Source: a virus
Taxonomy: Duplodnaviria; Heunggongvirae; Uroviricota; Caudoviricetes
Virus record (IMG/VR): IMGVR_UViG_2563366830_000016
Reading direction: 5' to 3' (one strand)
Length of the DNA: 14,107 bases
Shown here: one piece after another, positions 1,255-13,863 of the stretch
How positions within the stretch are numbered: position 1 is the stretch's first letter
How the letters are laid out: each line of letters opens with the position of its first letter
Program-made: the position numbers and the translations under genes
Notes under the pieces: generated by a model
Database searches by the model: none
What the model was told of the DNA's origin: nothing
Seen by the model: the letters and a program-made list of their open reading frames with translations, nothing else

Positions 1255-1368
1255 ATAAAACCGGGTGATGCAAAAGTAGCCATTTGATTCACAAGGCCAT
1301 TGACGCATCGCCCGGTTAGTTTTAACCTTGCCCACCGTGATTCACGTTCGTGAACATGTCCTTTCAGG

Positions 1369-1444
1369 GCCGATATAGCTCAGTTGGTAGAGCAGCGCAT
1401 TCGTAATGCGAAGGTCGTAGGTTCGACTCCTATTATCGGCACCA
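1369..1444 (+). tRNA. thrW: tRNA-Thr (anticodon CGU)
   Basis: 76-nt sequence GCCGATATAGCTCAGTTGGTAGAGC...GGTTCGACTCCTATTATCGGCACCA with cloverleaf-compatible arms, anticodon loop TTCGTAA (CGT) and encoded 3' CCA; recognised as enterobacterial thrW, a known integration target for P4-like and P22-like elements. Confidence 0.95.
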
Positions 1445-1461
1445 TTCAAACATCTCCCCAA

Positions 1462-1545
1462 GTCTACTAAAGTCTTTCAAAACCCCTTATAATCCGCGTA
1501 TTAAAGCCCCGTTCGTCTTTTGACGTCTACTAAAGTCCCTCAAAA
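1462..1545 (+). repeat. Two 21-bp direct repeats (GTCTACTAAAGTCTTTCAAAA at 1462-1482; GTCTACTAAAGTCCCTCAAAA at 1525-1545) between the tRNA 3' end and int; candidate integrase arm-type sites in attL
   Basis: Read directly: 19/21 identical copies spaced about 63 bp apart, immediately downstream of the tRNA and upstream of the integrase start. Tyrosine integrases of tRNA-integrating elements commonly bind arm-type repeats in this position; the function is inferred. Confidence 0.4.
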
Positions 1546-1609
1546 TCTACGGTCAGATGGGGGTACTTATGGGGGTATTTGCTGTTCGGTTTAGTGGAGG
1601 TACCCCCAA

Positions 1610-2824
1610 GTGAAACTCAATGCCCGTCAAATAGACACAGCCAAGCCAAAAGAGAAGGCTTACAAGCTGGCCGATGGTGGCGGTTTGTATCTCTTGGTAA
1701 AACCTAATGGAGGTAAATACTGGCGACTTAAATATCGTGTAGATGGTAAAGAGAAGCTATTGGCACTAGGTGTGTATCCTGAGGTTACTCTAGCCGATGC
1801 TCGGGCAAAACGTGAAGATGCGAAAAGAGGTATCGCTGGTGGTATCGATCCGATGGAAGCGAAACGAGAGGAAAAGATTGCCCGGGAAACGCAGTTAAAC
1901 AACACCTTCAAAGATATTGCCCTTGAGTGGCACAGCAGCAAATTAAAAAAATGGTCTGCTGGTTATGCTTCAGACATCCTCGAAGCCTTCAACAAAGATG
2001 TGTTCCCTTACATTGGCAAAAAACCAATCGCCGAAATCAAACCACTTGAACTTCTGAATGTGCTGCGGCGCATCGAGGGGCGCGGTGCTACAGAAAAAGC
2101 CAAAAAAGTGAGGCAGCGGTGCGGGGAAGTTTTCCGCTATGCAATAGTCACTGGTCGCGCAGAGTATAACCCTGCACCAGACCTTACTAGCGCGATGCAA
2201 GGCCATGAATCTAATCATTACCCTTTCCTTACAGCTAAAGAATTACCTGATTTTTTCAAGGCATTGTCCAGTTACTCAGGAAGCGCATTGGTTGTTATGG
2301 CGGCTCGTCTACTGATTATCACCGGCTTGCGGACTGGCGAACTACGTGGCGCATTATGGGATGAAATTGATTTCAACAAGGCTATCTGGGAGATACCCGC
2401 TTCACGTATGAAAATGCGGCGGCCTCATATTGTGCCATTGTCTGATCAGGCTCTTTCGCTTATTGGGAAGATTAGAGAAATAACAGGCAATTACCCTCTT
2501 ATGTTTCCCGGGCGCAATGATCCAAGGAAAACAATGAGTGAGGCCAGCATAAACCAAGTGTTTAAGCGCATTGGCTACGCTGGACGTGTAACTGGTCATG
2601 GGTTCCGGCACACTATGAGTACGATTTTGCATGAGCAGGGCTATAACACCGCGTGGATAGAAACGCAGCTCGCTCACGTTGATAAGAACTCAATTCGTGG
2701 CACATACAACCATGCGCAATATCTGGATGGAAGGCGGGAGATGCTTCAATGGTATGCCGACTATATGGATTCTCTCGAGCATGGCGGAAATGTGGTGCAT
2801 ATGGTGTTTGAAAAACACGCATGA
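1610..2824 (+). CDS. Tyrosine-type site-specific integrase, P4-like family (GTG start)
   Basis: 404-aa ORF; N-terminus KLADGGGLYLLVKPNGGKYWRLKYRVDGKEKLLALGVYPEVTLADARAKR is the typical P4-type integrase arm-binding domain; C-terminal HGFRHT and catalytic-Tyr region (YNHAQY) consistent with tyrosine recombinases. GTG at 1610 is the only in-frame start; GGAGG lies 9 nt upstream. Adjacent to the tRNA. Confidence 0.9.
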   Translation: MKLNARQIDTAKPKEKAYKLADGGGLYLLVKPNGGKYWRLKYRVDGKEKLLALGVYPEVTLADARAKREDAKRGIAGGIDPMEAKREEKIARETQLNNTFKDIALEWHSSKLKKWSAGYASDILEAFNKDVFPYIGKKPIAEIKPLELLNVLRRIEGRGATEKAKKVRQRCGEVFRYAIVTGRAEYNPAPDLTSAMQGHESNHYPFLTAKELPDFFKALSSYSGSALVVMAARLLIITGLRTGELRGALWDEIDFNKAIWEIPASRMKMRRPHIVPLSDQALSLIGKIREITGNYPLMFPGRNDPRKTMSEASINQVFKRIGYAGRVTGHGFRHTMSTILHEQGYNTAWIETQLAHVDKNSIRGTYNHAQYLDGRREMLQWYADYMDSLEHGGNVVHMVFEKHA

Positions 2825-2967
2825 AACAACTGGACAAGTATACAGAGGTTTACTAAAGTATAGGGGAGTAGATTGATAAAAACTCACAGAGGATTGCTAT
2901 TTAACAGTTAGCCCTGGAGAAGGGCAATCGCTCTTTTATAAACGAAGGTGTATTGAGCCTTCTACGT

Positions 2968-3032
2968 CGCTGACAAAGCGGAATGTTCTTTAACAGGCTT
3001 TGGCGCTGACAAAGCGCAATTGTTCTTTAAAA
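2968..3032 (+). repeat. Tandem imperfect direct repeats of about 28 bp (CGCTGACAAAGCGGAATGTTCTTTAACA / GCGCTGACAAAGCGCAATTGTTCTTTAAAA) in the int-alpA intergenic region
   Basis: Read directly at 2968-2995 and 3003-3032. Position between int and the regulator gene suggests a protein-binding or regulatory site; function unknown. Confidence 0.4.
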
Positions 3033-3131: not shown

Positions 3132-3166
3132 AAAGACCGCAATATGTTTTTCATATTGTGGTCTTT
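3132..3166 (+). promoter_or_regulatory. Long inverted repeat (15-bp arms, 5-nt centre): AAAGACCGCAATATG-TTTTT-CATATTGTGGTCTTT, upstream of alpA
   Basis: Read directly; one mismatch in 15 bp; no U-tract follows on either strand, so operator-like or RNA-structure rather than an intrinsic terminator. A TTGACG motif follows at 3181-3186. Confidence 0.4.
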
Positions 3167-3252: not shown

Positions 3253-3456
3253 ATGGCTAATTACAATTCATTAATTCGTCTCTCTGAAGTTCAAAGGCGA
3301 ACTGGTTATAGCAAAGCATGGATTTATCGTCTTATTAGTCAGGGGAGGTTCCCTAAACAGGTAAAAATTGGAAGTCGGGCAATTGCTTTTGTTGAGTCTG
3401 AAATAGATGAATGGATTGAGAAGTGTATATTAGAATCTAGAGACGAGGTGGCCTGA
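3253..3456 (+). CDS. alpA: AlpA-family phage/island transcriptional regulator (small HTH protein)
   Basis: 67-aa ORF with ...GYSKAWIYRLISQGRFPKQVKIGSRAIAFVESEIDEWIE..., the characteristic AlpA (prophage CP4-57 regulatory protein) pattern; AGGA about 10 nt upstream; same orientation as int, as in P4-like and PICI-type elements. Confidence 0.85.
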   Translation: MANYNSLIRLSEVQRRTGYSKAWIYRLISQGRFPKQVKIGSRAIAFVESEIDEWIEKCILESRDEVA

Positions 3457-7542: not shown

Positions 7543-7906
7543 AAATGTAGAAATGGCGCTTAGCTCCGCAATCGGAGAGCAGGTGGCAAAGATTGCTGGT
7601 GCTGTGTGGATTCATAACCTTCATTCTACTGGTGAAGAGAAAATGGCAATTCAGACGCCAGAGGGACGCACCATTACTACATCTCTGAAGCCGTCAGATG
7701 TTTGTGATCTGATTTGCGCATTCATGTACCCAGCAATGAGGACTGTCCACGGCGATAAGTGGAAACTTGCGACAACCGCTGAATTTGATATGTGGCTAAA
7801 CAATGATGGCATGCTGACTGATTACGGAATAACCAAGTGGCAGATGCTAGTTAGCCATATCGCAAACGCTATAGACCACGTGGGGTACGGTGATGCGAAA
7901 CATTGA
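7535..7906 (+). CDS. Hypothetical protein (123 aa)
   Basis: GGGAGG RBS 6 nt upstream; 3' end overlaps the primase start by 14-17 nt. Confidence 0.7.
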   Translation: MRENVEMALSSAIGEQVAKIAGAVWIHNLHSTGEEKMAIQTPEGRTITTSLKPSDVCDLICAFMYPAMRTVHGDKWKLATTAEFDMWLNNDGMLTDYGITKWQMLVSHIANAIDHVGYGDAKH

Positions 7907-10649
7907 TCTTATCCGTCAGGTTATCAGTGCGTCTGAAAACAACTGGCCTCATGTGCTGGGCTGCCTGAACATAAATGTCCCTGACTCTCCGCGCCGTCAT
8001 GCTCCCTGCCCTGCATGTGGGGGCAAAGATCGATTCCGGTTCGATGACAACGGGCGCGGTAGCTTCATCTGTAATCAGTGCGGCGCTGGTGATGGGCTGG
8101 ATTTAATTAAACGCGTAAATAACTGCGACACAACAGAGGCGGCGCTTCTTGCCGCTGATGTTCTGGGTATTGATTACCGGACAACGGAAACACCAGAAGC
8201 CACCAGCCAGAAACGGGAACAACTGGAAACCGAGCGCCAGCGACGCGAACAGGAGCGCCTGAAAAGGGCAGAGAAGGACGAACAACAAAGACGGGATACG
8301 TTTTCCCGTCAGTTTGATGACATGCGCAGAAAGGCTGTAAACGGCAAATCTGATTATCTGGTTGCGAAAGGGGTAGGTGATTTTACATTCCCCGTGTTGC
8401 CCGATGGATCTCTGTTGCTGGCGCTGGTGGATAAATCCGGCGCAGTAACAGCAGCACAGACTATTACCTCACATGGTGAAAAAAGACTCCTGACAGGTTC
8501 AGCAAAGCGAGGGGCATATCACGCCATAAACGCACCAGAAACAACACAGAGCATCTTAATCGCAGAAGGGCTGGCAACGGCATTATCTGCCCATTTAATG
8601 CGTCCAGAGGCGCTGACAGTGGCGGCGATTGATGCCGGGAACCTGTTATATGTCGCCCAGGTACTGCGGGATAAATTTCCTTCAGCACAAATCATCATTG
8701 CTGCGGATAACGACCACAGCGAAGGAAGACAAAACACGGGGAGAATAGCAGCAGAAAAAGCAGCTTTATCTGTTTCTGGATGGGTGGCATTACCCCCGAC
8801 AGATCACAAAGCAGACTGGAATGATTACCACCAAAAACACGGCATTAAATGCGCCACAGAAGCGTTCAATAAGTCAATGTACCAACCACAGGGTAATGGC
8901 GTGAAACAGGAGCCACAGACCATTGAGGGAAGCGATTTTAAGGTTATGGATACCGATCCACTGAAACCAAGAATAGAAAGCCGCGAGGATGGTATTTATT
9001 GGGTATCTCCGAGAGCTGACAGCCAGAGTGGAGAAATCATCAATAACGAAAGCTGGTTATGTTCTCCGTTAAGCGTTATCGGTACTGGCAGAGACGATAA
9101 AGACCAGTATCTCATTCTTCGCTGGCTGTCGTTTGGTTCTGAAACGCCGACAACCGCTGCCATTCCACTGGCTGATATTGGTGAACGTGAAGGATGGCGC
9201 ACACTTAAAGCTGGTGGGGTAAATGTCACGACCAAAAGCAGCCTCAGAGCAATACTGGCAGACTGGCTACAACGCAGTGGCTCTCGTGAATTGTGGCGTG
9301 TTGCTCATGCCACTGGCTGGCAATGCGGAGCGTACATCATGCCTGATGGGGAAATCATCGGAACACCTGAAAATCCTGTGCTGTTCAGCGGGAGAAGCTC
9401 AGCCGCAGCCGGATATACCGTCTCAGGGAGCGCGAAAAGCTGGCGTGATAACGTGGCGCGTCTGGCCTTTGGTAACTATTCAATGATGACCGGGATCGGC
9501 GCAGCACTGGCAGCGCCATTGATTGGGCTGGTGGGCGCTGACGGGTTCGGCATTCATTTCTATGAGCAGTCGAGCGCAGGTAAGACCACCACGGCAAACG
9601 TGGCGAGCAGCTTATACGGCAACCCTGATTTACTGCGGCTGACGTGGTACGGAACCGCGCTGGGGCTGGCAAATGAGGCCGCCGCCCACAATGACGGACT
9701 AATGCCGCTTGATGAAGTTGGTCAGGGCGCTGATCCTGTCAGCGTTTCACAGTCTGCCTATGCGTTATTTAACGGTGTAGGGAAACTGCAAGGCGCTAAA
9801 GATGGTGGAAACCGGGATCTAAAACGCTGGCGTACAGTGGCAATCAGCACCGGAGAAATGGATTTAGAAACATTTATCGCTACTTCCGGGCGAAAAACCA
9901 AAGCCGGGCAACTGGTGCGACTGCTGAATATTCCGTTGAGTAAAGCAGTACGCTTTCACGATTACCAGAACGGAAAACAGCACGCAGACGCACTGAAAGA
10001 CGCTTACCAGCATCACCACGGCGCGTCCGGGCGTGAGTGGATTAAATGGCTGGCAGACCACCAGCAACAGGCTATTAAAACCGTTCGTGACTGCGAAAGC
10101 AGATGGAGAAGCCTGATCCCATCCGATTATGGTGAGCAGGTTCACCGTGTAGCCGCGCGATTTGCCATTCTGGAGGCCGCATTGTTGTTAGGCGAGGTTG
10201 TAACAGGCTGGGATGCTCAGACATGCCGTGATGCGATACAGCACAGCTATAACGCATGGTTGCGCGAGTTCGGCACAGGTAACAAAGAGCATCAGCAGAT
10301 TATTGAACAAACGGAGGCATTTCTTAATGCCTATGGGCTTAGCCGTTTTGCACCATTTCCATACAGCCCGGCAGATTTGCCCATCAAAGATTTAGCCGGA
10401 TACCGTCAGCGTGGAGAACATGACGAAAGCCCAATGATTTTCTACACATTCCCGGCCACATTTGAAAAGGAGATCGCATGTGGTTTCAACGCAAAACAGT
10501 TTGCTGAAGTGTTGAAAAAAGCCGGGATGCTAACCCCACCAAACAGCGGTCGTGGATACCAAAGAAAATCACCACGTATTCAGGGACGACAAATAAACGT
10601 TTATGTACTCAATTACCAGCCAGGAGATTATAACTCATCTGAAGAATGA
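7890..10649 (+). CDS. Satellite/phage-type DNA primase-helicase (primase Zn-ribbon + TOPRIM + P-loop NTPase, P4 alpha-like)
   Basis: 919-aa ORF. N-terminal zinc-ribbon CPACGG...FICNQCG typical of primase-helicase Zn-binding domains; charged linker (EQLETERQRREQERLKRAEKDEQQRR); TOPRIM-like acidic motif (IAADNDHSEGRQ); Walker A (SSAGKTTT). Track start is GTG 7890; ATG at 7893 is the alternative. Confidence 0.9.
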   Translation: MMRNIDLIRQVISASENNWPHVLGCLNINVPDSPRRHAPCPACGGKDRFRFDDNGRGSFICNQCGAGDGLDLIKRVNNCDTTEAALLAADVLGIDYRTTETPEATSQKREQLETERQRREQERLKRAEKDEQQRRDTFSRQFDDMRRKAVNGKSDYLVAKGVGDFTFPVLPDGSLLLALVDKSGAVTAAQTITSHGEKRLLTGSAKRGAYHAINAPETTQSILIAEGLATALSAHLMRPEALTVAAIDAGNLLYVAQVLRDKFPSAQIIIAADNDHSEGRQNTGRIAAEKAALSVSGWVALPPTDHKADWNDYHQKHGIKCATEAFNKSMYQPQGNGVKQEPQTIEGSDFKVMDTDPLKPRIESREDGIYWVSPRADSQSGEIINNESWLCSPLSVIGTGRDDKDQYLILRWLSFGSETPTTAAIPLADIGEREGWRTLKAGGVNVTTKSSLRAILADWLQRSGSRELWRVAHATGWQCGAYIMPDGEIIGTPENPVLFSGRSSAAAGYTVSGSAKSWRDNVARLAFGNYSMMTGIGAALAAPLIGLVGADGFGIHFYEQSSAGKTTTANVASSLYGNPDLLRLTWYGTALGLANEAAAHNDGLMPLDEVGQGADPVSVSQSAYALFNGVGKLQGAKDGGNRDLKRWRTVAISTGEMDLETFIATSGRKTKAGQLVRLLNIPLSKAVRFHDYQNGKQHADALKDAYQHHHGASGREWIKWLADHQQQAIKTVRDCESRWRSLIPSDYGEQVHRVAARFAILEAALLLGEVVTGWDAQTCRDAIQHSYNAWLREFGTGNKEHQQIIEQTEAFLNAYGLSRFAPFPYSPADLPIKDLAGYRQRGEHDESPMIFYTFPATFEKEIACGFNAKQFAEVLKKAGMLTPPNSGRGYQRKSPRIQGRQINVYVLNYQPGDYNSSEE

Positions 10650-11411: not shown

Positions 11412-11873
11412 ATGGAACTAAAATTTATTGATAACCCTGTGCGATTACAGGCCTTTCTTAACGAGCCAGGCAATACCGAAAATATTGTTGAGCCGGGGCA
11501 CACGTACTACATCAAGCCTGATGCGGTATATCTCGGCATCTACGAAGGATTAGTGCTGGCTGGCGTTCATGAAGTGCGTAACTTCTGGCATAGCGTTGTT
11601 GAATGCCATGCGGTGTACGACCCCGGATTCCGTGGTGAATATGCACTGCAAGGACATCGATTATTCTGCAAATGGCTTCTCGAAAACTCACCATTCCTTA
11701 ACAGCATCACTATGGTTCCTGACACCACGAAATACGGACGGGCAATTATCCGTTTGCTTGGCGCTACCCGTGTTGGTCACCTTGATGATGCTTATATCAG
11801 ATGTGGTAAACCCGTCGGCGTAACGCTTTATCAGTTAACTCGGCAACAATATAAGGAATTCAGCGAATGTTAA
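11412..11873 (+). CDS. Hypothetical protein (153 aa), possibly P22 gp14-like; co-transcribed with downstream ejection-protein-like genes
   Basis: 153-aa ORF; its stop overlaps the next gene's start (ATGTTAA). Position and size match the gene preceding gp7 in P22-like clusters; the homology is recalled, not verified. Confidence 0.6.
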   Translation: MELKFIDNPVRLQAFLNEPGNTENIVEPGHTYYIKPDAVYLGIYEGLVLAGVHEVRNFWHSVVECHAVYDPGFRGEYALQGHRLFCKWLLENSPFLNSITMVPDTTKYGRAIIRLLGATRVGHLDDAYIRCGKPVGVTLYQLTRQQYKEFSEC

Positions 11874-12544
11874 TTACCCATATAGCTCATAAACATCTCA
11901 ATCGTGCCGTATACGAAAAAGGCGGTGATGGTGGTGCCTCTAAAGCTCAGGCGAAGGCCCAGCAGCAGGCAATTGATTTGCAGCGCGAGCAGTGGAATAC
12001 GGTGATGAATAATCTCAAGCCGTATGCAGAAGTCGGATTGCCTGCTTTACAACAACTACAAGGACTGATGACTCTGGAAGGGCAGAATAAAGCCGCGAAT
12101 GATTTCTTTGGTTCTGGTTTATATAAAACACAGGCAGATCAGGCCCGTTATCAGAACCTTGTCTCAGCAGAAACTACCGGGGGGCTTGGCTCAACAGCTA
12201 CCAGTAACCAGTTATCTTCCATTGCGCCCATGCTTTATAACAATTGGCTTAGTGGGCAAATGCAAAATTATGGAAACCTGCTAAATGTCGGGATGAATGC
12301 GGCATCAGGGCAGGCAACGGCAGGGCAAAACTACGCCAATAATACCGGACAACTCTTGCAGGGGCTTGGCGCTATTCGTGCAGGTCAGGCGCAGCAGCCA
12401 TCCAGTCTTGCGCGTGGTATTGGTGGGGCAGCATCAGGCGCTTTAGCGGGTGCGCAACTTGGTTCCGTTGTTCCTGGAATAGGAACTGCGGCCGGCGCTA
12501 TTGGTGGTGGGCTTATTGGTCTTGTTGGGGGGCTTGGATTCTAA
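11867..12544 (+). CDS. P22 gp7-like DNA-transfer (ejection) protein candidate, Gln/Gly/Ala-rich with glycine-zipper hydrophobic C-terminus
   Basis: 225-aa ORF, AAGGA RBS; low-complexity Q/G/A-rich composition and C-terminal GIGTAAGAIGGGLIGLVGGLGF segment. Size and composition match podovirus ejection protein gp7 (about 229 aa). Assignment by composition and synteny only. Confidence 0.55.
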   Translation: MLITHIAHKHLNRAVYEKGGDGGASKAQAKAQQQAIDLQREQWNTVMNNLKPYAEVGLPALQQLQGLMTLEGQNKAANDFFGSGLYKTQADQARYQNLVSAETTGGLGSTATSNQLSSIAPMLYNNWLSGQMQNYGNLLNVGMNAASGQATAGQNYANNTGQLLQGLGAIRAGQAQQPSSLARGIGGAASGALAGAQLGSVVPGIGTAAGAIGGGLIGLVGGLGF

Positions 12545-13863
12545 TGGCGACATGGCAACTTGGCGGGCTGCCTAGCATGGCACCGCAAAATGATAATGCT
12601 CCTCGTTCTTCCGTTCCTCAGCCTGTGCAGTATCAGCAGCAGCCAAACGTAGGTTTAATGGCGCTACAGGGGCTAAGAGGCGTTGCTGAGATTAATCAGC
12701 AGGCGCAAATTTCCCAGCAGCTAAAAGAATATCAGGCACGGTTGGGTAGTGCGGTAGCTAATAATGATCGTGTTGGCGTGCAGAAGTTAATGGCCCAGTA
12801 TCCCCAGTTTATGGCTGATTCTCAAAAACAGATGGGATTCATTGATGCTGAGCAAAATCGGCAGACCGCTGACGCTGCCATGAATCTGCGTCTTGCGTCA
12901 CAAACTGGAGATCCACTGACCATGCAGAAGGCCATTCAGCAGGCAAATCCAGTATTACAGCGATTTGGTCTTCCTGCTGAAGAGGTTTATCAGTCTTGGC
13001 AGAATGACCCACAGGAATTCAACAGAATCACTGACCTCATCCACCTCCATGCTGATCCAAATAGTTACTTTAGTGTTCAAGAGAAGCAGCAAGGGCAGAG
13101 TATTGCACAGCAGAACGCAGATACATCTGCATATAATGCTCAGGTTAATGCGGAGCAGGGTAATCGGCGGCTCGATATGGAGCAGTTCAAAGTCCTATCC
13201 GATAACCAACTACGCACGAGAGAAATGGTTCTGAAAGCACGACTTGGACGTGCTCAAAATGACATCGAGAGAGACAAGCTCAATGCTGAACTGAGCAAGG
13301 TACAGCAGGCGAAAGTGGAGAAGATGAACGATAAAATTAATACTGTTGCAGGTAATATCGACTCCTTGAACTCTGCGCTTGAAGTGGGTCATGAACTGGC
13401 GGGAATTGTAGGGAAACATCCTTCGGCCGTTACCCGTTCGCAGAACTATAACCCCCTGACGCTGGGGTTTGGATTCCTCCCTGATGTAGCAGAAGACACA
13501 CGAAGCCTACGCGCCAAAGCTGATGAATACAACCTAAAGGTTATTCTGCCTAGCCTAAAAGGTACTTTTGGCTCTAACCCAACCGAAGGGGAAAGGGCTG
13601 CCCTTATGCAATCTCAAAATGGCATTAAGTCAGCAACCAGCAATGAGGCATTTTTGCGAGAGTTGAATAAAGCGCAGGACGTAATTATTCGAATGCAGAA
13701 ACGACAGATTGCCGGGCTCGGTATTCCTGTAACCAAATCTAAGGACGAAGAAACTGATACCAAAATGCTGTTGCAGGATCCTTCACTGGTTAAGGATTAT
13801 GTGACCGCACATGGCTATCTGCCGGAAAGTTACTATCAGGCAAAACTTAAGGGATGGCAATGA
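12544..13863 (+). CDS. P22 gp20-like DNA-transfer (ejection) protein candidate, Gln-rich coiled-coil protein
   Basis: 439-aa ORF starting at TAATG overlap with the upstream gene; Q-rich, helical/coiled-coil character; size and position match gp20 (about 470 aa) of P22-like phages. Assignment is inference. Confidence 0.55.
   Translation: MATWQLGGLPSMAPQNDNAPRSSVPQPVQYQQQPNVGLMALQGLRGVAEINQQAQISQQLKEYQARLGSAVANNDRVGVQKLMAQYPQFMADSQKQMGFIDAEQNRQTADAAMNLRLASQTGDPLTMQKAIQQANPVLQRFGLPAEEVYQSWQNDPQEFNRITDLIHLHADPNSYFSVQEKQQGQSIAQQNADTSAYNAQVNAEQGNRRLDMEQFKVLSDNQLRTREMVLKARLGRAQNDIERDKLNAELSKVQQAKVEKMNDKINTVAGNIDSLNSALEVGHELAGIVGKHPSAVTRSQNYNPLTLGFGFLPDVAEDTRSLRAKADEYNLKVILPSLKGTFGSNPTEGERAALMQSQNGIKSATSNEAFLRELNKAQDVIIRMQKRQIAGLGIPVTKSKDEETDTKMLLQDPSLVKDYVTAHGYLPESYYQAKLKGWQ

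Follow-up and report, generated by a model that had tools for sequence, protein, structure and literature searches.

Candidate integrase arm-type sites, probable excisionase sites and a putative embedded int promoter in the attL of a P4/PICI-type island at Escherichia coli thrW

Positions 1428–1609 of the window (the whole 14,107-nt stretch of DNA analyzed here) are the attL, comprising the core and the complete P′ arm, of a P4/PICI-type island in the Escherichia coli thrW gene. Sequence comparison suggests that the GGGGGTA repeats in this arm are sites for the island's integrase (Int), that two hexamer arrays are sites for its recombination directionality factor (RDF), and that the int promoter (Pint) is embedded in the P′ arm; to this model as a whole we assign a probability of about 0.75. 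An attL was already recognized here in the first-pass annotation, while the tandem 12-bp unit, the 10-bp phasing of the hexamers and the conservation of fixed offsets in related loci are additions of this study.

Results

The island and its attachment sites

The features of the locus are as follows.

1369–1444, plus strand: thrW, tRNA-Thr(CGT), the integration target (ARAGORN; Rfam tRNA, 71.8 bits; RefSeq annotation agrees)
1428–1446, no strand assigned: attL core, identity block TCCTATTATCGGCACCATT, recurring at attR minus one G in strain DLI.6n
1452–1477, plus strand: hexamer array 1, proposed RDF (AlpA) sites ATCTCC (1452), GTCTAC (1462) and GTCTTT (1472); holds the first 21-mer
1515–1550, plus strand: hexamer array 2, proposed RDF (AlpA) sites GTCTTT (1515), GTCTAC (1525), GTCCCT (1535) and ATCTAC (1545)
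1540–1545, plus strand: −35-equivalent of Pint, TCAAAA (TTGAAA in 34/68 homologues)
1557–1568, plus strand: predicted Int arm-type site P′1, ATGGGGGTACTT
1564–1569, plus strand: −10-equivalent of Pint inside P′1, TACTTA (2/6 match)
1569–1580, plus strand: predicted Int arm-type site P′2, ATGGGGGTATTT, in tandem with P′1 at a 12-bp period
1584–1590, plus strand: conserved GTTCGGT (GTTCAAT in many homologues) between P′2 and P′3, seen by eye in stacked sequences
1596–1600, plus strand: Shine–Dalgarno (SD) sequence GGAGG of int, 9 nt ahead of the GTG
1600–1608, minus strand: predicted Int arm-type site P′3, TGGGGGTAC, inverted, between the SD and the start codon
1610–2824, plus strand: int, P4-type tyrosine integrase, 404 aa, GTG start
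3253–3456, plus strand: alpA, AlpA/Vis-family HTH protein, candidate RDF for the hexamer arrays (Pfam Phage_AlpA, 7.4e-20)

The thrW gene has proA upstream and is separated from int by a spacer of 165 bp; the GTG start and GGAGG given for int in the first-pass annotation were confirmed. Int is heterobivalent, with an arm-binding Arm-DNA-bind_3 domain (residues 3–88; Pfam match 1.1e-28), a core-binding Phage_int_M domain (100–194; 1.3e-34) and a catalytic domain (206–371; Phage_integrase, 1e-26), as is characteristic of integrases adjoining P4-type attachment sites. Residues 2–99 match PDB entries 3JU0 and 3JTZ/3RMP, and the protein is 43% identical to P4 Int and 38% to IntA of CP4-57. The element also encodes its own AlpA/Vis-family RDF candidate, which is 39, 38 (over 39 aa) and 33% identical to P4 Vis, TorI and the AlpA of CP4-57, respectively. 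All genes lie on the plus strand in the order int, AlpA, AntA, Ash, TOPRIM/DUF927 primase and P22-type DUF2824/gp7/injectosome genes, that is, the unidirectional int–alpA–Bro-like zone–primase order of Gram-negative PICIs with their optional captured late genes, in agreement with the PICI zones laid out in PMC10111431. The island is about 24.9 kb long, more than the 10–20 kb usual for a Gram-negative PICI. The tRNA–int region, used as a query, was covered to at least 80% by a match in 799 of 5,426 complete genomes.

In strain DLI.6n, a second copy of the core was found about 24.9 kb downstream (L083, minus strand, TCCTATTATCG-CACCATT), so that the 19-bp block at the tRNA 3′-end is duplicated at attR with one G missing; no second copy was found within 21 kb in strain M15 (L001). 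Since the attR core is one G short in DLI.6n, the single strain examined, the element may be poorly mobile. About 80 bp from this core, the attR arm carries the tandem pair TGGGGGTACTTTTGGGGGTAT, and arm-type repeats whose sequence differs from the core are thus present on both sides of it, while neither the hexamer arrays nor the 21-bp repeats occur in the attR arm of the DLI.6n island.

G-rich 12-bp repeats as predicted Int arm-type sites

GGGGGTA is present four times in the window, against 0.68 copies expected, and three copies fall inside 50 bp, two direct (1559–1565 and 1571–1577) and one inverted (1601–1607). The two direct copies belong to a tandem 12-bp unit, ATGGGGGTACTT/ATGGGGGTATTT, that spans 1557–1580. 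The inverted repeat had been placed at 1599–1606 and described as overlapping the GGAGG ribosome-binding site; it does exist, but GTACCCCC lies one nucleotide further on, at 1600–1607, and shares only its first G with GGAGG.

Among 80 loci encoding Int homologues (61–97% aa identity, seven different tRNA targets), one group of which sits at the tRNA-Sec gene selC as identified by ARAGORN, 76 combine a tandem pair of exactly 12-bp period with an inverted repeat of the motif at the start codon; in most loci the inverted copy begins 7–9 nt ahead of that codon. Because these offsets are kept in related loci, the arrangement is far beyond chance.

The arm motif was then compared with Int itself. 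The difference between GGGGGTA and GGGGGCA corresponded without exception to the identity of three Int residues, namely 29 (L vs. E/Q), 50 (L vs. R) and 53 (L/V/I vs. F), and P4 Int, which has GGGGGCA arms and was outside the training set, carries the predicted E29/R50/F53. All 12 alignment columns that perfectly separate G5 from TATAG motifs are at residues 5–85. Among pairs matched for C-domain identity (0.8–1.0), N-domain identity was 0.88 for those sharing a motif versus 0.63 for those with different motifs. The motif class changed 3 times on the N-domain tree, which is the minimum, versus 13 times on the C-domain tree, while the tRNA target showed the reverse pattern with 14 and 7 changes, respectively. 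In a single-sequence AlphaFold model of Int 1–105, which is of low confidence (pLDDT 61), residues 29, 50 and 53 are placed in predicted strands. This covariation points to recognition of the arm repeats by the Int N-terminal domain.

Taken with the annotation of the P4 record (described below) and the attR pair, the covariation identifies the GGGGGTA repeats as Int arm sites: comparison showed the three elements of the P′ arm to be predicted arm-type sites for the Arm-DNA-bind_3 domain at the N-terminus of the integrase that the island itself encodes, and likewise the tandem pair of the attR arm to be predicted P-arm sites.

Phased hexamer arrays as probable AlpA sites

The two near-identical 21-bp direct repeats noted earlier in the 165-bp spacer are present at 1462–1482 and 1525–1545, with 19 of 21 positions identical (2 matches vs. 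0.01 expected). They proved to be the best-matching stretches of two hexamer arrays with a spacing of exactly 10 bp, the second 21-mer being held by array 2, which flanks the −35. The pattern RTCY-N6-RTCY-N6-RTCY occurs three times in the window, each time in the tRNA–int spacer, against 0.07 occurrences expected. In related loci the hexamers conform to RTCYNN with the same 10-bp phasing; relative to the first arm site, array 1 keeps the offsets −107/−97/−87 and array 2 those of −34/−24/−14, with a further conserved hexamer at −44 in the stacked sequences, and the position of array 2 has zero shift in all but one of 68 tabulated loci. Array 1 occupies the same position as the TorI block I1;2 of KplE1, and array 2 that of block I3;4;5, which mediates TorI repression there.

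The hexamers also followed the excisionase type. Within the 44 loci to which this test was limited, position 4 of the −34 hexamer was T in 36/36 with an AlpA-like RDF and A in 7/8 with a TorI-like RDF. In the GGGGGCA arm class alone, hexamers split into 11 A and 11 T, and where the RDF gene was found, the A-type went with a TorI-like RDF in 7/7 and AlpA-like RDFs with the T-type in 8/8; the hexamer class thus varies independently of that of the Int N-domain. In evolutionary terms the hexamer–RDF link is weak, since all seven TorI-like/GTCAAC loci belong to a single clade and amount to one event, and locus L008 is an exception. For 30 loci, no AlpA gene was found within the 3-kb flanks, a wider HMM search included.

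Sites for RDFs tend to be directly repeated at intervals of one helical turn, and P4 Vis is reported to leave footprints in attP. Given that the hexamers take the position of the TorI sites in KplE1 and follow the excisionase type, the 21-bp repeats and the arrays that contain them are probably AlpA (excisionase) sites. Counting against this, no hexamer-like phased array was found upstream of alpA, although AlpA activates its own promoter in EcCICFT073; a different repeat is present upstream of alpA.

A putative int promoter within the P′ arm

Consistent with the class of attL-embedded promoters (Panis et al., 2010), int is oriented away from the tRNA gene, and a promoter-like signal is found family-wide at the expected offset. 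At this −35/18-nt spacer/−10 position the family mean is 7.74/12 versus 3.33 for the background, with TACATT, CATAAT or TATATA as the −10-equivalent in homologues; the window itself reaches 5/12, and its promoter match is weak. A generic sigma-70 scan of 1250–1750 returned no promoter. A terminator scan of the same region gave one terminator-like match, which lies inside int and was discarded as meaningless.

By homology, the −35 would fall between the third and fourth hexamers of array 2 and the −10 inside P′1, and because the promoter would thus be embedded in the arm, Int bound at P′1, P′2 and P′3 could repress its own transcription, which RDF binding to array 2 may modulate as well. Negative autoregulation of int has been shown for IntS/TorI, P4 Int/Vis, IntF, IntC, IntL and the PAI I-536 IntI. 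The autoregulation of int proposed in the first-pass annotation is therefore plausible by analogy with the homologous layouts of P4, KplE1 and PAI I-536, as repression at the DNA level rather than through an RNA hairpin, while for the inverted repeat to which it had been ascribed, a third Int site acting as DNA is the better reading, ahead of a hairpin sequestering the ribosome-binding site. Against a control of Pint by the RDF, AlpA of EcCICFT073 is without effect on Pint; P4 Vis is reported to act on the int mRNA too. In view of the degenerate promoter hexamers in this lineage and the GTG start, int is probably expressed only weakly. Given the poor promoter match, autoregulation might have little relevance in this island, or transcription reading through from thrW might supply int expression.

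Comparison with known systems

The layout is identical to that of attP/Pint in satellite phage P4, where the core in the tRNA 3′-end is followed by two hexamer clusters between core and int, then by TTGAAA-18-CATAAT, a tandem pair of 12-bp G5 repeats and, at the int ATG, a further copy in inverted orientation. The P4 sequence reads TGGGGGCATAAT TGGGGGCATCTT ... TGCCCCCAaATG. In the GenBank record of P4, the label "attP arm sequence repeat" is given to a tandem pair of 12-mers, to an inverted 12-mer overlapping the int start and to another tandem pair in the opposite arm. Viewed from the core centre, and by our own arithmetic, the tandem pairs are at about 75 and 134 bp in P4 and at about 80.5 and 131 bp in the window's island. 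P4 differs in its arm motif (GGGGGCA with E29/R50/F53, vs. GGGGGTA), its target (leuX vs. thrW), its GTCC/ATCCG-type hexamers and a much better Pint −10. Two boxes between core and int are reportedly footprinted by P4 Vis, which we do not count as evidence. In P4, both Int and Vis repress Pint.

In the KplE1/CPS-53 attL (IntS, TorI) of E. coli K-12, the sites have been experimentally mapped: there are four P′ IntS sites, two direct and two inverted, and five TorI sites, of which I4/I5 beside the −35 mediate repression, while P′1 overlaps the −10; repression is dual, by Int and RDF. Shared with the window are RDF sites (TorI pentamers in KplE1) grouped into two blocks, of which the one nearer the promoter has 10-bp phasing and adjoins the −35 position, a −10 position inside P′1 with a weak match in the window, P′ sites that are direct and then inverted with the last at the ATG, and the geometry of PintS (TTGACA-18-TAAAAA). 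KplE1 differs in its arm motif (GGGTAAAA), its four P′ sites, its five RDF sites versus seven in the window, its target argW and its RDF, a member of the TorI subfamily with the 38% identity to AlpA over 39 aa given above; the nearest phage integrases, which are of the IntS type, share about 50% identity with the window's Int.

CP4-57 of E. coli K-12 (IntA, AlpA) is the founding AlpA system. Its attL is laid out in the same way, TAGGCCCATTGA/TAGGCCCAACGA forming the tandem pair, TTGGGCCTA the inverted copy and RTCCGA the hexamers, but its arm motif is AGGCCCA and its hexamer blocks are separated by an inserted terminator-like hairpin; its target, from RefSeq context, we take to be ssrA. Lambda follows the same logic: its Int is heterobivalent, the arm domain being N-terminal, both arms carry arm sites, and the RDF sites are phased direct repeats that bend DNA. 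However, the lambda arm domain is of another family than DUF4102/Arm-DNA-bind_3, Xis has its sites in the P arm and int transcription does not originate within attL; an inverted P′ site at the start codon characterizes the P4/KplE1 type.

Helper-embedded PICIs (HE-PICIs), which share with the window the int–alpA order, Bro-like zone, primase and captured late genes, carry a "doubled motif" that is tandem with a 12-bp period and occurs twice per attP in the same orientation, 81 ± 2 bp from the attP centre on the upstream side and 132 ± 2 bp from it on the downstream side (PMC10111431), compared with the values of about 80.5 and 131 bp for the window's island. Its sequence, TGTATTGC, is unlike GGGGGTA. 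The authors left the binding protein as the Int arm domain, AlpA or another, and reported the motif as unique to HE-PICIs (PMC10111431), whereas the layout described here is family-wide and the covariation points to the Int N-domain; a possible answer for the binder would be Int rather than AlpA.

Discussion

In the proposed mechanism, the arrays of three and four hexamers, phased by one helical turn, would be bound cooperatively by monomers of the AlpA/Vis-family RDF, and the bending of the P′ arm by the RDF would let arm-bound Int bridge to the core for excision. The first-pass annotation took the 21-bp repeats for the arm-type sites and the GGGGGTAC/GTACCCCC inverted repeat for a separate regulatory element of int. 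The 21-mers are indeed the longest repeats in the spacer and statistically unexpected, and direct repeats are common as arm sites; but the attR arm contains the GGGGGTA pair without hexamers, the Int N-domain class is perfectly tracked by the G-rich motif and decoupled from the hexamer class, and the P4 record and the KplE1 mapping put arm sites at 12-bp tandem and inverted repeats. Being 10-bp phased and at TorI-site positions, the 21-mers are very improbable as arm sites: the region does carry such sites, yet at the GGGGGTA repeats. A different binder of the phased hexamers in place of the island's AlpA, be it Int or a host factor (IHF or Fis, for example), is unlikely, although the RTC core is common to all lineages whatever their RDF, the 30 loci mentioned above have no AlpA gene within 3 kb, an IHF-like match is present at 1491–1503, and the P4 Pint region contains an IHF site. 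In KplE1, mutating the positionally equivalent 10-bp-phased TorI pentamers abolishes TorI repression, and hexamer positions 4–6 change with the RDF subfamily; the IHF consensus scan was at background (125 matches vs. 136 expected), with its single spacer match between the arrays and not on them.

It is also conceivable that in the leader RNA of int the inverted repeat folds into a hairpin, sequestering the SD and start codon for translational control. The 96-nt RNA of 1545–1640 folds at −30.1 kcal/mol with GGGGGUA paired to UACCCCC, the direct copies covary with the inverted one from locus to locus, binding of P4 Vis to int RNA has been reported, and the hairpin could still form in thrW read-through transcripts. 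However, the fold has a z-score of only −1.82, with 10 of 200 shuffles equal or better, and the hairpin was dropped as the main model on account of this modest score. A hairpin has no need of two direct copies at a fixed 12-bp period, the attR arm has the same motif as a tandem pair with no inverted partner, the motif covaries with Int residues, and the tRNA was the sole Rfam match at permissive E-values, with no family at the repeats. Further, transcription in KplE1 has been mapped to start some 28 nt ahead of the ATG, a point that both direct sites precede, and by homology the G-run would be outside the Pint transcript. We consider the hairpin improbable. That the repeats are chance or relic sequence without function has the degenerate promoter of this lineage as its sole support, and is already refuted by conservation, the offsets being kept in 76/80 loci and across genera, with shuffle controls likewise arguing against chance.

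With its attL of an already known P4-family kind, the locus adds another example, and the gain at this level is annotation, in that each repeat in the attL of this common thrW island of E. coli is assigned its identity. A broader reading, to which we give even odds, is that the N-domain and 12-bp motif form one swapped cassette with a residue code. If true, P4/PICI-type integrases would consist of two modules, the N-domain/arm motif moving independently of the C-domain/tRNA core, and arm specificity would be set by a small code that matches residues 29/50/53 to the T or C found at motif position 6. Orthogonality of arm motifs would then allow a single tRNA gene to host several islands in tandem with no cross-excision between them; the neighbour's P arm has a different 12-bp motif at 4/4 tandem junctions where it was readable, and the attR arm of the L036 element has its own motif while the next island in the array has GGGGGCA. 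The "doubled motif" thought specific to HE-PICIs would be one allele of a universal arm site. More useful than the annotation of a single locus is the comparative template, that is, the fixed geometry of hexamer arrays, promoter, 12-bp tandem pair and inverted copy together with the N-domain-to-motif correspondence. Used on sequence only, it may allow the arm sites and probable Int cross-reactivity of any P4/PICI-type island to be predicted, attR ends to be located and the tandem occupancy of tRNA sites to be explained.

Genetic setting of the thrW–int region

The proBA–thrW context of the island was borne out by RefSeq annotation. Across window positions 1300-2900 (1.6 kb, thrW plus int), the sequence matched E. 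coli chromosomes at 100% identity, and 799 of 5,426 complete genomes carried 80% or more of this stretch. The int product is a P4-type tyrosine integrase: Arm-DNA-bind_3 occupies residues 3-88, and Phage_int_M and catalytic domains are also present.

Features of the window
start of window: proA, last 417 codons
1369-1444: thrW, tRNA-Thr(CGT)
1452/1462/1472: hexamer array 1
1515/1525/1535/1545: hexamer array 2
1557-1568 and 1569-1580: tandem 12-bp G-rich units, P'1 and P'2
1600-1608: inverted G-rich copy, P'3
1610-2824: int, 404-aa ORF, GTG start
3253-3456, same strand as int, downstream: alpA
beyond alpA, same strand as int: antA- and ash-family genes
7890-10649, same strand as int: TOPRIM/DUF927 primase
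beyond the primase, same strand as int: P22-type DNA-ejection genes

Gram-negative PICIs of the same family have been described in terms of zones: integration, with Int and AlpA; Bro-like genes; replication; and late genes that were captured (PMC10111431). The window's island fits this scheme. The P22-type ejection genes 3' of the primase (11412-13863 and beyond; 31426-39345 in L001, the strain M15 locus; also in L083, the strain DLI.6n locus) comprise DUF2824, gp7, an injectosome translocase and, last, a lytic-transglycosylase gene. They lie inside the att-bounded ~24.9-kb island and look like podovirus genes captured into the 'late zone' of a PICI, not a second prophage. IS3, IS4 and IS66 insertions in the island vary from strain to strain. 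The int–alpA intergenic region carries ~27-bp direct repeats (2968-2993 and 3004-3030, CGCTGACAAAGCGnAAT(T)GTTCTTTAA) and a hairpin with a 15-bp stem (3132-3166), candidates for the operator and the terminator of the alpA promoter; in a model PICI, this promoter is activated by AlpA.

Repeat organization of the thrW–int spacer

All spacer elements listed by the first-pass annotation were found in the sequence. The two 21-mers (1462-1482 and 1525-1545) match at 19 of 21 positions (two hits vs. 0.01 expected), and GGGGGTA starts at 1559 and 1571, with an inverted copy at 1601-1607 (four copies in the window vs. 0.68 expected); GTACCCCC, placed at 1599-1606, is present one base further right, at 1600-1607. 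A structure of hexamers and 12-bp units was more informative than the repeats as first listed: both G-rich copies form one tandem pair of 12-bp units (1557-1580), and the 21-mers are portions of two hexamer arrays with exact 10-bp spacing. RTCY-N6-RTCY-N6-RTCY occurred three times in 14 kb (0.07 expected), each time within the arrays.

Two further elements were observed. Between P'2 and P'3, within what is presumably the 5' UTR, lies a conserved GTTCGGT (1584-1590), which reads GTTCAAT in a large number of homologues and TTCGAT in P4, and which resembles TGTTCTTTAA within the repeats upstream of alpA. Inside int, an in-frame pair with a 12-bp period (AGAGGTAtcgctGGTGGTA, 1826-1844) encodes K-R-G-I-A-G-G-I, and in nine thrW-lineage homologues (L003-L010 and L012, +216 from the int start) synonymous codons yield an intact AGGGGTA/GGGGGTA arm-like pair; the P4 record likewise annotates one arm repeat within int. 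This pair may serve Int as an additional site, or may simply follow from what the gene encodes.

The layout was compared across 80 loci encoding Int homologues (one genome per species, 61-97% amino acid identity) that adjoin seven tRNA genes, Thr-CGT, Arg-TCT, Gly-CCC, Sec, Ser-TGA, Arg-CCT and Phe. The tandem pair was present with an exact 12-bp period in 76/80 loci, mostly ~50 bp upstream of the start codon, together with at least one inverted copy, the last beginning 7-9 nt upstream of the start codon. Counted from the first arm site, hexamers [G/A]TC[T/A/C]A[C/T] stood at -34/-24/-14 and -107/-97/-87, and a single locus of the 68 tabulated showed any shift. When 41 non-redundant sequences, P4 among them, were stacked without gaps, information peaks appeared at the hexamer positions and at -44, where a fourth hexamer lies.

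Known systems have the same layout. As 'attP arm sequence repeat', the P4 GenBank record annotates two tandem 12-mers by int, an inverted 12-mer over the int start and two more tandem 12-mers on the far side of the core; its sequence reads GTCTTC-cgag-GTTGTC-cgTTGAAATCCGG-atatcat-TGGGGGCATAAT-TGGGGGCATCTT-...-TGCCCCCAaATG. In KplE1/CPS-53, five TorI sites were mapped in two blocks, the proximal one 10-bp phased and abutting the -35, together with four IntS P' sites, of which P'1 overlaps the -10, and a transcription start site (TSS) ~28 nt upstream of the ATG; intS is repressed by both IntS and TorI (Panis et al.). Read against that map, the K-12 KplE1 sequence is GTTCG..GTCCG / GTTCGtcatgGTTCGcttcaGATCG-TTGACA-18 nt-TAAAAA, with the -10 inside GGGTAAAAagtgGATAAAA, then TTTTACCC twice, the final copy at the ATG. 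The CP4-57 attL holds RTCCGA hexamers, TAGGCCCATTGA/TAGGCCCAACGA and an inverted TTGGGCCTA. Judged by sequence, the window is therefore a further instance of a family-wide attL design.

The G-rich repeats as probable arm sites of Int

Four lines of evidence, namely occurrence in both arms, covariation with the Int N-domain, an ancestry control and a check on P4, point to the G-rich repeats as the Int arm sites. The far junction of the island in strain DLI.6n reads ...GATATGGGGGTACTTTTGGGGGTATCTATAAAAAATG...(A-rich)...TCCTATTATCG-CACCATT, so that attR carries the same tandem pair as attL, ~80 bp from the thrW 3'-end copy; no hexamer arrays were found in this attR arm. An island of the GGGGGTA class in Photorhabdus asymbiotica (L036) bears GGGGGGTACATTTGGGGGTAT in its attR arm, which immediately precedes a second island with GGGGGCA sites.

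The tRNA 3'-end copy in the DLI.6n attR (L083 minus strand 23654-23637) lacks one G. Deletions are reported in PICI attR tRNA fragments (PMC10111431), and the missing G is consistent with such 'damage' at Thr and other tRNA genes; it may lower excision.

In an alignment of 77 Int homologues, T vs. C at motif position 6 coincided without exception with residue 29 (L vs. E/Q), residue 50 (L vs. R) and residue 53 (L/V/I vs. F), and 12 columns, all within residues 5-85, perfectly split G5 from (G/T)TGTATAG motifs. The motif variant thus covaries solely with the N-domain, which matches the solved arm-binding domains of P4-like integrases (3JU0, 3JTZ/3RMP); residues 29, 50 and 53 fall in strands in a low-confidence single-sequence model.

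At C-domain identities of 0.8-1.0, pairs sharing a motif had an N-domain identity of 0.88, and pairs with unlike motifs one of 0.63. For example, the homologous loci L014 and L015-17 stand at the same C-domain identity to the window (0.83) and have hexamer regions that are almost alike, yet their arm motifs differ, as do their N-domain identities to the window (0.80 vs. 0.65). By Fitch parsimony, motif class required three changes on the N-domain tree (window residues 1-88), the minimum for four states, vs. 13 on the C-domain tree (residues 100-404), where shuffled labels gave a mean of 30.9. These results indicated that the association goes beyond common ancestry. P4 Int, 43% identical, outside the set from which the rule was derived and with GGGGGCA arms, has E29, R50 and F53, as predicted.

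A 'doubled motif' of helper-embedded PICIs (HE-PICIs), tgTGTATTGCan twice, is reported on both sides of the attP centre, at 81±2 bp on the upstream side and 132±2 bp on the downstream side; its authors left the binder open and held the motif to be unique to HE-PICIs (PMC10111431). Since the calculated distances of the doubled pairs are ~80.5 and 131 bp in the window's island and ~75 and 134 bp in P4 (from the annotated record), the doubled motif appears to be the general P4-type arm site, and the covariation of arm motif with N-domain residues would assign its binding to the Int N-domain.

The hexamer arrays as predicted RDF sites

The hexamer arrays are predicted, inferentially, to be sites of the recombination directionality factor (RDF; AlpA/Vis/TorI type). 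RDFs typically bind direct repeats that recur at intervals of one helical turn, and the arrays equal in position and 10-bp phasing the TorI sites of KplE1, which were studied by mutation; P4 Vis has a footprint within attP, and the island has an AlpA/Vis-family gene of its own. Position 4 of the -34 hexamer was T in 36/36 loci with AlpA-like RDFs (conserved RTGYSKAWIY) and A in 7/8 loci with TorI-like RDFs, although these seven TorI-like/GTCAAC loci form a single clade and L008 is exceptional. Within arm class GGGGGCA alone, hexamers were split 11 vs. 11 (A-type/T-type); where an RDF gene was found, 7/7 A-type loci had a TorI-like RDF and 8/8 AlpA-like loci were T-type. Hexamer identity therefore tracks the RDF subfamily, not the Int arm class. 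No phased array of similar kind was found upstream of alpA, where the different 27-bp direct repeat lies instead.

In the thrW islands L008 and L019-L025, a TorI-like rather than AlpA-like RDF is encoded ~1-1.5 kb downstream of int. It occurs together with GTCAAC-type hexamers in L019-25, while L008 retains GTCTAC-like hexamers and lacks the distal array.

Promoter geometry, autoregulation and the leader hairpin

At the offset that corresponds to the promoters of KplE1 and P4 (-35 at -19..-14, 18-nt spacer, -10 at +5..+10 within the first arm site), 68 loci scored a mean of 7.74/12, vs. a background of 3.33 and 5.34 at the next-best offset; the commonest -35 was TTGAAA, and the commonest -10 was TACATT, CATAAT or TATATA. 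The window's own hexamers, TCAAAA/TACTTA, scored 5/12, and a generic scan of its thrW–int region returned no promoter. Based on these two results and the GTG start, we infer weak int expression in this island, possibly with a contribution of thrW read-through.

With the -10 placed in P'1, Int occupying P'1, P'2 and P'3 would cover the -10, the start site and the region transcribed first, and the RDF array would flank the -35 on both sides. Negative autoregulation has been demonstrated for P4 Int, IntS, IntF, IntC, IntL and the PAI I-536 integrase, while the RDF effect on the int promoter differs: TorI and Vis repress, and AlpA is without effect in EcCICFT073. By homology, autoregulation of int is plausible here. 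The initial interpretation stands as to attL, the presence of arm sites and possible autoregulation, but the roles assigned to the two repeat types were swapped.

The G-rich copies could alternatively act in an int-leader RNA hairpin, as the leader folds at -30.1 kcal/mol with GGGGGUA paired with UACCCCC (z = -1.82). However, the motif is present in attR without a pairing partner, is duplicated with a fixed 12-bp period, covaries with protein residues and, by homology to the mapped KplE1 TSS, would lie mostly upstream of the transcript. The DNA-site reading is more economical and ranks above the hairpin, for which a role in thrW read-through transcripts is possible.

Module shuffling and tandem neighbours

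Opposite to the arm motif, the tRNA target required seven changes on the C-domain tree vs. 14 on the N-domain tree. Judged from these sequence trees, the reciprocal incongruence indicates repeated shuffling of arm-binding and catalytic modules. At the tandem-island junctions L014, L047, L053 and L063, the attR arm of the upstream neighbour holds its own 12-bp tandem pair, 200-300 bp upstream of a partial tRNA. The neighbour motifs (GCGTACTTA, GGTCAAGTTA twice, and GGGGGTA) are each unlike that of the downstream island, and thus neighbours on one tRNA core would have distinct arm specificities. The attL of the window is one more example of a well-known kind of site; the novelty is confined to the modular covariation and to the unlike arm motifs of tandem neighbours, seen in 4/4 readable junctions.
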